From Ignavibacteria bacterium (GTDB lineage: Bacteria > Bacteroidota > Ignavibacteria > Ignavibacteriales > Ignavibacteriaceae): DNA of 64,000 nt. The notes under the pieces are model-generated. The model ran no database searches, had not been told where the DNA came from, and was given only the letters and a program-made list of their open reading frames with translations. The translations under genes were made by a program, and so were the position numbers. The DNA lies in contig JAUXVN010000071.1 of NCBI GenBank assembly GCA_030684555.1, positions 4,197 to 68,196 on the forward strand, given 5' to 3'. Below are positions 10,184 through 13,100 of this stretch, piece after piece (the stretch's first letter is position 1; each line of letters opens with the position of its first letter).

Positions 10184-13100
10184 ATGCACAAACTAATTGA
10201 AAACGACATAGAACGCTTTGCTATTGAGCAGCTTGAACATCAAGGCTATCAGTACGTCTACGCCCCCGATATTGCCCCGGACTGTGAAAAACCGGTGGTA
10301 CATCCCTTTGGGAAACGTAAAACTTTTGAAGATGTATTATTGATTGAACGGTTGCATAAAGCAGTTGGAAGAATAAATCCCAAAATACCCGCCGAAGCAA
10401 GAGAAGAAGCTGTAAAACAAATAGAGAGAATAAACTCCCCCGAATTAATAGCCAATAACGAAACATTTCACCGTATGCTAACAGAAGGAATAAATGTAAC
10501 TTATCAAAAAGATGGGAATAGGAGAGGTGATTTAGTTTGGCTGATTGATTTTAACAATCCCGATAACAACGATTTTATTGTAGCAAATCAATTTACTGTT
10601 GTTGAAAACGGCATAAACAAACGCCCCGATGTAATTCTTTTTATAAACGGTATTCCGTTGGTTGTAATAGAATTAAAAAATGCAGTTGATGAAAATGCAA
10701 CAATTCGTTCTGCATTCAGACAAATAGAAACTTATAAACAGACTATACCAAGTTTATTTACTTATAATGGTTTTGTAGTTATATCAGACGGACTTGAAGC
10801 TAAAGCCGGGACAATCTCTGCCGGTCTAAGCCGTTTTATGAGTTGGCCTGTCTGCGTGCGTGCCCACCTTCGTCCCCGGGTCGGACAAACACGCACAGCC
10901 AGAAAATCTATTGACGGTAAAAAAGAATTCTATACATACGTGCTAAGATGTGATAATGAAAGTCTATATATAGGGCAAACAGAAGATTTAGAAAAAAGAT
11001 GGAATCAACATATTAGTGGTGAAGGTGCAGATTGGACTAAAGCGCATAAACCTTTAGAGATTATACATCATGAAATTTATTCTACTAGAGAAGAAACCGT
11101 TGAAAGAGAAAGATGGCTTAAAACTGGTTTTGGTCGCAAATGGATTAAAAGAGAAATTGCTGCAAAAAGAAATAGAGTTTTTCCTTTTGAAAAGGTACCA
11201 GAGCGAGCCTCGCATCTTATAAGTGAGTTAGAGATACTCATTAACGGAATGCTAAACAAAAAAACAATGCTCGATTTATTAAGGCACTTTATTGTCTTCG
11301 AGAAGAATAAAAAAGAAGATTTACAAACCAATCTTACAGTTATTGAAACAACAAAGAAATTAGCTGCATACCATCAATATTATGCGGTGAACAAAGCGAT
11401 TGAAAGCACGTTGCAGGCAACGAGCTTTCAACCCTCCCTCAATCCCTCCCAAAGGGAGGGAAGCAATTATAGGGGCGGATTAAAGTTTACCGGAATGATT
11501 GAACAAGTTAGAGAACTTCGCAAAAATCAAACCAATACGGAAAAAATATTTTGGGAAGTAGTTAGAAATAAAAAATTTCTCGGTCTTAAATTTAGAAGAC
11601 AACATCAGATTGGGCATTACGTTGTGGATTTTTATTGTCATTCGGAAAAATTAATTATTGAATTTGATGGAGAAGTTCATAATACAATAAAACAGAAAAA
11701 GAAAGATGAAATTAGAGATAAATATTTAACCTCACTTGACAACAAGGTTTTACGATTCAAAAACGAAGAACTTATAAATAACCCTGACTTAGTATTAAAT
11801 AAAATTCATCAAAATATCTCAAAGCTCCCTTCCACCATTGGGGGAAGGGTTGGGGTTGGGGGTTATGGAAGCCGCAAGGCTGGAGTAATCTGGCATACTC
11901 AAGGAAGCGGAAAATCTTTATCAATGGTATTTTATACCGGGAAAATAGTTTTAGCGTTAGACAATCCTACAATCTTAGTAATAACTGACCGTAACGATTT
12001 GGATGATCAGTTGTTTGATACTTTCGCTGCATCAAAACAATTATTAAGACAAGACCCGGTACAAGCAGAAAACAGAGGACAATTAAAAGAACTGCTTAAA
12101 GTTTCATCGGGGGGAGTTGTGTTTTCTACTATACATAAATTCCAACCGGATGAGGGGAATGTATATGAGGAGTTATCGGACAGAAAAAACATAGTTGTAA
12201 TTGCTGACGAGGCGCACCGGACTCAATATGGGTTTAAGGCAAAGCAGATTGATGATAAAGATGAAGATGGAAATATAATTGGTAAAAAGACCGTTTACGG
12301 TTTTGCAAAATATATGCGGGATGCTCTGCCTAACGCTACTTATCTTGGTTTTACCGGAACCCCTATTGAAAATAGTGACGTGAATACCCCGGCTGTATTT
12401 GGCAACTATATAGATGTTTATGATATTGCTCAAGCAGTGGAAGATGGTGCAACAGTTCGTATTTATTATGAAGGAAGACTTGCAAAAATAAACCTTAGCG
12501 AAGAGGGTAAAAAACTTGTCTCTGAATTGGATGATGAACTCGATTTAAAAGACTTATCATCAGCTCAGCAAGCAAAAGCAAAATGGACACAGTTGGAAGC
12601 GTTAGTAGGGAGTAAAGACCGAATTAAACAAATCGCTGCCGATATTGTTGCTCACTTCGAACTTAGGCAAGAAGTATTTGAAGGGAAAGGAATGATAGTT
12701 TCGATGTCCAGAAGAATCGCTGTCGAACTATATCGAGAAATAATAAAACTAAAACCGGCATGGCATAGTAATGATTTGAATAAAGGAACAATTAAAGTTG
12801 TAATGACAGCTTCATCTTCAGATGGTCCCGAAATGGAAAAGCATCATACAACAAAAGATCAGCGTAGAGTTTTGGCAGATAGAATGAAAGCTCCCGCAGA
12901 TGAATTGAAACTTGTGATAGTTAGAGATATGTGGCTTACCGGATTTGATGTCCCTTCACTGCATACACTTTATATCGATAAACCAATGCAAGGGCATAAT
13001 TTAATGCAAGCTATTGCGAGGGTTAACCGTGTATATAAAGACAAACCCGGTGGGCTTATTGTTGATTATCTTGGTATCGCATCTGATTTGAAAAAAGCAC

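Follow-up and report, generated by a model that had tools for sequence, protein, structure and literature searches.

The Type I restriction gene hsdR of an Ignavibacteria bacterium carries within its reading frame a short GC-rich palindrome and a complete GIY-YIG nuclease module, and we consider it likely that both belong to a family of selfish elements, composed of a nuclease and hairpins, that are translated through as part of the host protein. The gene lies in the 64,000-nt stretch of DNA that was analysed (contig JAUXVN010000071.1, positions 4,197 to 68,196 of the forward strand; hereafter the window), whose features are listed in Table 1. An earlier sequence-only reading had described the palindrome and the module between the nuclease and helicase parts of HsdR, which Pfam searches and alignments bear out; it did not spell out that the two are separate insertions, and it missed both a further insert, a DUF559 module, and a mini-hairpin in hsdM of the same operon. 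Comparisons of alleles and genomes show that such inserts stay in frame and are evidently translated through, vary between orthologues, are transmitted horizontally and are under selection, and that they form a widespread family of a cassette and its cognate palindromes. The layout resembles that of the REP/RAYT systems (repetitive extragenic palindromes and their associated transposases), and from these comparisons we infer a mechanism that is set out below.

The host protein matches the Type I HsdR family TIGR00348 (NCBIfam) with an E-value of 1.7e-173 and 578.7 bits, against a cut-off of 284.55. Its Pfam domains are HSDR_N (residues 6-214), SWI2_SNF2 (551-783), T1R_D3-like and T1RH-like_C, to which two extra nuclease domains are added, GIY-YIG (249-314, E 1.6e-14) and DUF559 (441-545, E 5e-34); of the profiles that the sequence-only reading proposed for a search, GIY-YIG (PF01541) and HSDR_N were found. 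The residues of the native PD-(D/E)xK site, D149, E163 and K165, are invariant in the HsdR alignment, and the motor/helicase motifs are intact. Aligned to EcoR124I HsdR, the insertion site falls at about residues 231-238, at the end of the endonuclease domain, and DUF559 lies directly before helicase motif I. The exact protein, NCBI MDP2302557.1 from an Ignavibacteria metagenome-assembled genome, is annotated as a plain HsdR.

Insert boundaries were set by protein and DNA alignment with orthologues that are empty at the site, and the gaps are clean. The limits of the palindrome, 10847-10903, agree exactly with those proposed earlier. The GIY-YIG insert had been placed at about 10925-11194; its presence and its clean gap hold, and its right edge lies 12 nt past 11194, at 11206, because the residues VPER belong to the insert. 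Both segments are multiples of three, 57 nt and 279 nt, as had been stated. In the empty allele at locus L001 the sequence runs TGG/AAATCAGTGGACGGTAAAAAAGAA/GCA; since it keeps the intervening host codons, the palindrome and the module are two separate insertions, 24 nt apart. Over the 360 nt that comprise the palindrome, the host codons and the module, no stop codon occurs in frame, as against 4 and 16 in the other frames. The palindrome was also said to be a GC-rich imperfect inverted repeat. Its G+C content is indeed 0.67 compared to 0.33 for the whole window, and three of the four short GC-rich spots in hsdR are insert boundaries; the repeat itself, in contrast, is weak in this copy (DNA fold -11.8 kcal/mol, z = -1.25), its right arm having degenerated to ACACGCACAGCCAGA. 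On these grounds the window's copy may be decaying and no longer mobile.

In orthologues the palindrome is a clean hairpin, in which CCTG/CAGG is followed by a 2-nt bulge and 4-6 bp. Its length there is 27 nt (CCTGTCTGCGTG-CAA-CGCACAGGCAGA), 30 nt or 39 nt, and the 57-nt form of the window, found also in homologue P0045, is a long-loop, partly degenerate version of the 27/30-nt hairpin CCTGTCTGCGTG..CGCACAGGCAGR. All 25 HsdRs that carry GIY-YIG at this site have the hairpin, and none of the other HsdRs does, including all empty alleles. The 27-nt hairpin is 100% identical in 11 genomes; the neighbouring 60 nt are 72% identical, and third codon positions there 48%. The peptide encoded by the palindrome is predicted by AlphaFold to be disordered, with a predicted local distance difference test score (pLDDT) of 30-38 (residues 224-245 below 50), and the other junction linkers also fall below 50; the mean over residues 1-620 is 66. 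An arrangement like that of I-TevI, with cleavage marked by the hairpin 24 nt ahead of the insertion, is unsupported, and the distance from hairpin to module varies from 15 to 36 nt in single-hairpin orthologues.

The inserted module has 93 aa and is of the UPF0213/YhbQ/Slx1-like type (PF01541, 54.4 bits against a cut-off of 22.6). Its nearest solved structures are the UPF0213 (YhbQ/COG2827) proteins 1YWL (E 1.8e-9) and 1ZG2 (E 1.4e-8), in agreement with the YhbQ/COG2827 assignment made from the sequence alone, and its match to the I-TevI catalytic domain is marginal (E 0.1). Among 110 aligned modules the catalytic residues (Tyr, Tyr, Arg, His and Glu) show a conservation of at least 90%, and with the profile and structure matches this places the module in the UPF0213/YhbQ/Slx1-like GIY-YIG group. 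It is modelled as a confident separate domain (pLDDT 86-92), and the ratio of nonsynonymous to synonymous change (dN/dS) over the module is 0.11-0.15. Pfam detects no NUMOD or helix-turn-helix domain; the module consists of the catalytic domain only and lacks the tethered binding domain of I-TevI. Because the module brings no start codon into HsdR, its nuclease can be produced only as part of that protein; in this HsdR lineage the module also lacks inverted-repeat ends of its own.

The inserts are polymorphic. Among the 120 best HsdR homologues found by BLASTP, about 66-91% identical, 57 are empty, 39 carry DUF559 only, 22 carry GIY-YIG only and 2 carry both, as does the window itself. Empty proteins are about 1071-1099 aa long, GIY-only about 1177-1217, DUF559-only about 1196-1277, and those with both 1342-1386. 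Orthologues about 83-90% identical are found empty, with GIY-YIG, with DUF559 or with both, which runs against the possibility that all close orthologues carry these segments as an inherited domain. The closest relatives of the window's HsdR (about 88-90% identical) are without the GIY insert and have all host domains intact. The three-insert layout of the window recurs in homologue P0001 from an independent assembly; this recurrence, together with the exact protein MDP2302557.1, rules out an assembly artefact and hence the chimera that the sequence-only reading had allowed for. In homologue P0044 hairpin, GIY-YIG and DUF559 are all present, yet DUF559 is at another site (site B), and the GIY cassette of P0054, whose ends are canonical (LPAPPPGQ...ARQAG), occupies a third site, past the motor domains (after VSQMFH).

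In a tree of the host part alone (1044 core columns, 121 sequences), the filled alleles of the window and P0001 (both inserts) and of P0003 (GIY only) are scattered among empty ones, the sister of P0001 being the empty P0021; deeper in the tree, a clade of about 20 HsdRs is mostly GIY-bearing. Codon analysis of three filled alleles, compared in three pairs with the GIY module and hairpin taken as one insert block, gave a dN/dS of 0.13-0.15 for the block and 0.04-0.05 for the host, from which it follows that the insert encodes a constrained protein. Synonymous divergence (pS) was 0.35-0.47 in the block and 0.64-0.68 in the host, and in all three pairs the insert value lay below that of each of the 98 contiguous host blocks of equal size. 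Since insert pS is below host pS, the insert appears to coalesce later than the genes that carry it and to have spread between alleles that had already diverged. These comparisons show that the block moved horizontally between diverged hsdR genes, and filled and empty alleles at one site together with horizontal spread are features shared with elements of the I-TevI type. Sliding DNA identity revealed a mosaic hsdR, with no clear co-conversion tract except a higher identity of the insert to locus L005.

The GIY module is not confined to HsdR. An exhaustive profile search with the 93-aa module (cut-off E<=1e-10) matched 373 representative clusters; in the best 150 of these, which are 50-65% identical, the module is nearly always embedded in a longer protein, a few being fragments that begin within it. 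By Pfam, 49 of 110 host proteins examined carry Methylase_S (HsdS), and further hosts of restriction-modification (R-M) type carry HSDR_N, HsdM_N, Type III methylase or DUF1156. Hosts outside R-M systems include SelR/MsrB, trigger factor, TatD, QueC, cobalamin adenosyltransferase, TrmD, ArgRS, Ogt, SET and TfoX. When 185,579 species genomes were scanned for the motif LKTG[FS]GRKW, 120 stretches matched, of which 80 loci from different assemblies were kept. Represented among these 80 are Thermodesulfobacteriota, Nitrospira, Verrucomicrobiota, many Patescibacteria, Planctomycetota, Bacteroidota, Acidobacteriota and one archaeon. In all 80 the module lies inside a long open reading frame (ORF). 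The usual cassette has 95 aa (285 nt), xLPAPRPGxF...AGR(T/A)RQAG, and is inserted cleanly, for example in HsdS at DPND/EPAS and in MsrB at HVFDD/GP. A viral contig collection contained no relative of the module; carriage by phages is thus unsupported.

The cassette has conserved inverted repeats at its ends. Over 55 loci these read CTGCCTGCGCCGCGNCCNG on the left and CNGGNCGGRCGCGGCAGGCAGG on the right, and they pair through a 9-bp stem, a bulge, a 4-bp stem, a second bulge and a 5-bp stem. Two third-codon positions, both synonymous, face each other in the inner stem, one in an Arg codon on the left and one in a Gly codon on the right; this pair is Watson-Crick in 31 of the 55 loci, where 16 are expected (permutation p 5e-5), with 13 G-C, 9 A-T and 7 C-G pairs among the types. 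A second synonymous pair is Watson-Crick in 21 of 55 (13.7 expected, p 0.017), and 8 more have G-T. Because synonymous sites covary, selection seems to act on the pairing of ends about 250 nt apart, beyond what the peptide requires. Taken together with the dN/dS values and the identity of the 27-nt hairpin, these results show purifying selection on the nuclease protein and nucleotide-level selection on the hairpin or stem. In loci L034 and L042 a second type of palindrome, CCTGTCTGCGTGC / GCACGCAGACAGG (LPVRxTQTG), is nested in the right end of canonical GIY cassettes, and in an HsdS subfamily (L066, L083) the right end reads ...ARTQTG.

The arms of the hsdR hairpin, CCTG(Y)CTGCG on the left and CAGGCAG on the right, are like the ends of the cassette, and the 27-nt hairpin also occurs as independent copies elsewhere. 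Near canonical cassettes mini-hairpins are enriched about 100-fold, with 20 in 439 kb as against 0.2 in shuffled sequence; their lengths there are 18, 21, 27, 30, 33 and 39 nt. A pattern scan of metagenomes returned at least 120 stretches. In the 80 loci examined the hairpins are mostly of 27 or 30 nt, CAA and CGGACA loops being commonest, and some contigs have multiple copies; they lie in non-coding DNA and, within long ORFs, in all six frames, with peptides such as PVCVQRTGR, ACLRAxTHRQA, LSACNAQAG, LPVRCTQTG, ACLCVARRQA and PACALHADR. This makes the comparison with Rickettsia palindromic elements (RPEs), proposed from the sequence alone, apt as regards behaviour. Locus L117 (metagenome contig Ga0190315_1001658) has 4 mini-hairpins in different frames and orientations, in three adjacent large ORFs (1210, 384 and 1131 aa), together with one canonical GIY cassette. 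The orthologue at L063 has a cassette where L117 is empty, and the L117 hairpin 14 codons upstream is missing from L063. In the window, tblastn with both modules and blastn with the GC-rich flanks found self-matches alone; a later pattern search gave the 21-nt hairpin in hsdM, the sole match to CCTGYCT..AGRCAGG in the window, where 0.02 are expected from shuffles. It is missing from the orthologous HsdM of L002 and L006, whose HsdM genes have other small GC-type inserts farther downstream (in L006, SPSPNLSQGERKNSLPLSEMSE...).

The second nuclease insert of hsdR, a Vsr-like DUF559 module, is likewise missing from empty and GIY-only orthologues. The 32-nt palindrome that abuts it has 15-nt arms that are 93% complementary (fold z -4.9); it is present in the three DUF559-filled alleles and missing from the empty ones, with one compensatory change between the window and L006. 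DUF559 has two sites in different lineages, the other being about 45 aa upstream of the window's position; in homologue P0271 it occupies the loop used by the GIY insert. AlphaFold models it as a confident separate domain (pLDDT 79-89) with disordered linkers. Its dN/dS is 0.15-0.19, and its pS is clearly below that of the host in one pair only. A search with the module returned mostly free-standing proteins of 120-140 aa and a few in-frame HsdR/HsdM fragments, and it missed the full-length HsdRs known to carry DUF559; since free-standing proteins predominate in that search, the in-frame habit appears to be less general for DUF559 than for the GIY module.

On the reading that we prefer, the paired ends of the usual 285-nt cassette, CTGCCTGCGCCGCG... 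and ...CGCGGCAGGCAGG (LPAPRPG... and ...AGRxRQAG), and the mini-palindromes would be parts of one system. In the 348-nt stretch first singled out, two adjoining in-frame insertions would represent it, the mini-palindrome as the non-autonomous part and the GIY-YIG cassette as the enzyme. In HsdRs of the present lineage both stem halves would have closed into a hairpin of 27-57 nt, located 24-36 nt ahead of a cassette whose own ends are gone. The elements appear to have no promoter, start codon or stop codon, and would persist by having lengths divisible by three and by being read through in translation. Hairpins would become disordered loops and the nuclease a separately folded domain, so that the host protein should still work and the nuclease would be made only within it. 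The Slx1-like, structure-specific nuclease may recognise or nick the cognate hairpin, the paired ends or the empty site, and recombinational repair could then copy the element, giving a homing-like spread with occasional moves to new genes. The resulting layout, a single enzyme copy and several short palindromes per genome, would recall REP/RAYT. The sequence-only reading had offered a selfish element as one of two explanations, and that proposal is supported by the polymorphism, the scattered filled alleles, the younger pS of the insert and the presence of the module in dozens of unrelated proteins.

Several observations weigh against this reading. Nuclease activity, cleavage site and movement are put forward by comparative inference. 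No target-site duplication was seen, and 120 stretches in 185,579 species genomes, obtained with a strict motif, is a low number for a transposon. The module is without a DNA-binding domain, which leaves recognition of the target or hairpin unexplained. The permutation tests of covariation ignore kinship among the sequences, and composition or nucleotide-level constraint, rather than age, could explain part of the lower insert pS. The enrichment in R-M genes may be biased by the query used, and a preference for them may otherwise stem from these genes being dispensable, often transferred and DNA-binding. The degenerate hairpin of the window may mean that this particular copy no longer moves, and the maintenance through a deep clade of an HsdR-lineage ORF without inverted repeats of its own could point to domestication.

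Domestication would make the GIY module and its upstream hairpin a functional accessory of the restriction enzyme, supplying a second cleavage chemistry, the other explanation offered from the sequence, or a regulatory function, and inherited with the operon. The missing ends, the purifying selection (dN/dS 0.13-0.15), the joint retention of module and hairpin in about 20 HsdRs of the deep clade and in 25 of 25 cases overall, and the enrichment of the family in HsdS, HsdR and HsdM all fit this explanation. We nevertheless regard it as unlikely: the module is missing from the closest relatives, about 88-90% identical, whose host domains are intact, HsdR has kept its native PD-(D/E)xK triad, the host alleles are older than the insert, and MsrB, trigger factor, TrmD and QueC, which have no obvious role for a DNA nuclease, carry the module as well. 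If, on the other hand, the inserts were inert relics, with a nuclease that is inactive or irrelevant, and were spread or lost by ordinary homologous recombination among transferred hsdR genes, then the mosaic structure of hsdR, the degenerate hairpin of the window, the module's lack of ends and the low copy number per genome would all be expected. A relic would also be expected to decay, whereas dN/dS is 0.13-0.15, the residues needed for catalysis are maintained, 11 genomes share a 100% identical hairpin where the background is 72%, and the cassette ends covary at synonymous sites; there seems to us little chance that the inserts are mere passengers of this kind.

A novel intron or intein, removed from RNA or protein to leave a mature HsdR without inserts, is the least probable explanation and we give it hardly any weight. 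Terminal stems would juxtapose the junctions in RNA, and the sense strand tolerates some G-T (G-U) pairs, as such a process might allow. However, Pfam finds no Hint or intein domain, and the junctions W/P..R/K and E/F..R/A have neither an N-terminal Cys/Ser nor a C-terminal His-Asn followed by Cys/Ser/Thr. An Rfam E-value scan of 9500-14500 for group I and II introns gave two chance-level hits only, with no intron or other family above threshold, and the ORF is continuous. Splicing is further disfavoured because all elements keep the frame and are free of stops, and the mini-hairpins are multiples of three in length; efficient splicing would remove such selection.

Contrary to the earlier suggestion that a nuclease cassette in a restriction subunit had not been described, there is one prior remark. 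Dunin-Horkawicz, Feder and Bujnicki (2006) noted an Slx1-like GIY-YIG domain inserted at about residue 800 of the HsdR MCA0838 of Methylococcus capsulatus; it was missing from an 80%-identical homologue and was judged recent, unique, possibly selfish and possibly non-functional (PMC1564403). MCA0838 is like the window in having an in-frame Slx1/UPF0213-like GIY-YIG in a Type I HsdR. It differs in site and layout, about residue 800 compared to residue 248, and was reported as a single case, without palindromic ends, mini-hairpins, other host genes or allele polymorphism. The cassette site of P0054 may correspond to that of MCA0838. The other close precedent, ShiLan, sits in frame in a phage methylase, is not spliced and conceals an out-of-frame HNH nuclease (PMC11855218). 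Like ShiLan and the homing endonuclease genes of inteins and introns, the hsdR inserts are nuclease-encoding selfish inserts at a fixed site in a conserved gene, with filled and empty alleles and horizontal transfer, and like ShiLan they are read through without splicing. In contrast to homing endonuclease genes they have no splicing domain or ribozyme and do have palindromic ends and mini derivatives; their nuclease is in the host frame, whereas the HNH of ShiLan is not; and they lack the DNA-binding domain of I-TevI.

REP/RAYT systems (REPINs) share with the GIY/hairpin family short, imperfect, multi-copy palindromes, a low-copy enzyme between inverted palindromic ends and strong conservation of the palindrome. 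Their enzyme is an HUH Y1 transposase (PF01797) and not a GIY-YIG nuclease, which makes the present family an analogue of REP/RAYT and not a member; moreover the sequences are unrelated, REPs are extragenic, whereas the hsdR-type elements lie inside ORFs and are translated, and the association between enzyme and hairpin is here a putative one. RPEs, compared by behaviour, are likewise in frame, palindromic and polymorphic among orthologues. They measure 100-150 bp, belong to one lineage and have no known associated nuclease, while the mini-elements described here are 18-57 nt long, GC-rich, found in many phyla and share their ends with a nuclease cassette. Full-text literature searches, subscription journals aside, turned up no account of in-frame GIY-YIG cassettes bounded by palindromes, of their mini-hairpins, of a uniform unit of 285 nt or of so varied a set of host genes, the 2006 remark and ShiLan being closest. 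The elements are thus a new variant among selfish nuclease elements and in-frame palindromes, and not categorically new. That they amount to an undescribed, widespread class of mobile elements living in the reading frames of bacteria and archaea, with a 285-nt cassette whose paired ends become linkers in the protein, cognate mini-hairpins of 18-39 nt in multiples of three, a nuclease produced solely as a domain of the invaded protein that copies the element via the hairpin structure, a preference for R-M genes and a convergent DUF559 system (CCCTCCC/GGGAGGG ends), is a broader proposal that we advance tentatively, at somewhat less than even odds.

Table 1. Features of the window; positions are counted from its first nucleotide, and a slash marks a junction.
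Feature	Position	Strand	Remarks
UzuA	3761-4570		defence island
hsdM	4805-6367		defence island
21-nt mini-hairpin CTGCCTACCGGACAGGCAGGC (LPTGQAG) in hsdM	5966..5986	+	in frame; same operon
SoFic	6470-7615		defence island, between hsdM and hsdS
hsdS	7774-8898		defence island
PDC-M04A/B	8895-10092		DUF3800 and partner; between hsdS and hsdR
hsdR	10184..14197	+	unbroken ORF, 1337 aa; host gene
Host ...SRFMSW	last nt 10846	+	alignment with empty alleles
GC-rich mini-palindrome	10847-10903, 57 nt	+	TGG/CCTG...CAGA/AAA; in frame; peptide PVCVRAHLRPRVGQTRTAR
Host codons KSIDGKKE (n=8)	10904-10927	+	homologous to KSVDGKKE in empty alleles
GIY-YIG module	10928-11206, 279 nt, F249-R341	+	in frame
Host ASHL...	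starts 11207	+	alignment
32-nt palindrome TTGAAAGCACGTTGC-AG-GCAACGAGCTTTCAA	11400..11431	+	abuts left junction of DUF559 insert
DUF559 module (Vsr-like PD-(D/E)xK)	11432..11866	+	145 aa, in frame; PF04480 E 5e-34
Left DUF559 hairpin CCCTCCC-AAA-GGGAGGG	11444-11460	+	GC-rich end
Right DUF559 hairpin CCCTTCCACC-ATT-GGGGGAAGGG	11827-11849	+	insert end

The gene hsdR is the last of a defence island in which further defence genes, SoFic and PDC-M04A/B (6470-10092), split the Type I operon; the DUF3800 pair is also found at the orthologous loci L001 and L002. The first gene in Table 1 encodes a free-standing protein of 269 aa with GIY-YIG at its C-terminus, which matches UzuA of the Uzume defence system (PADLOC E 2e-67), and its GIY-YIG shows no relation to the inserted hsdR module at a level detectable by tblastn. 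Near the N-terminus of HsdR (aa 34-45, 10283-10300), a local GC-rich stretch encodes six extra residues, VVHPFG, missing from nearly all orthologues, and the HsdRs P0008 and P0028 have very small inserts of their own, for instance ASTSSAS; all of these may be additional mini-elements. In L006 a Y1 transposase gene (PF01797, of IS200/IS605 or RAYT type; 9455-9916) lies immediately upstream of the DUF559-bearing hsdR and RtcB immediately downstream, with Archease upstream of the operon, a neighbourhood that may be coincidental.

If our reading is true, a whole population of selfish elements has gone unnoticed, since annotation would show merely over-long proteins with an extra GIY-YIG or DUF559 domain. 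Consequently, 'HsdR + GIY-YIG', 'HsdS + GIY-YIG' and similar domain architectures should not be taken as functional fusions. Besides introns and inteins, nuclease genes inside essential or useful genes would have a third lifestyle, that of a tolerated domain through which translation simply proceeds. The insertion sites chart loops that tolerate insertion in many proteins, and the 93-aa nuclease, with a 27-nt hairpin whose every nucleotide is conserved across phyla, would constitute a compact and testable pair of enzyme and substrate.

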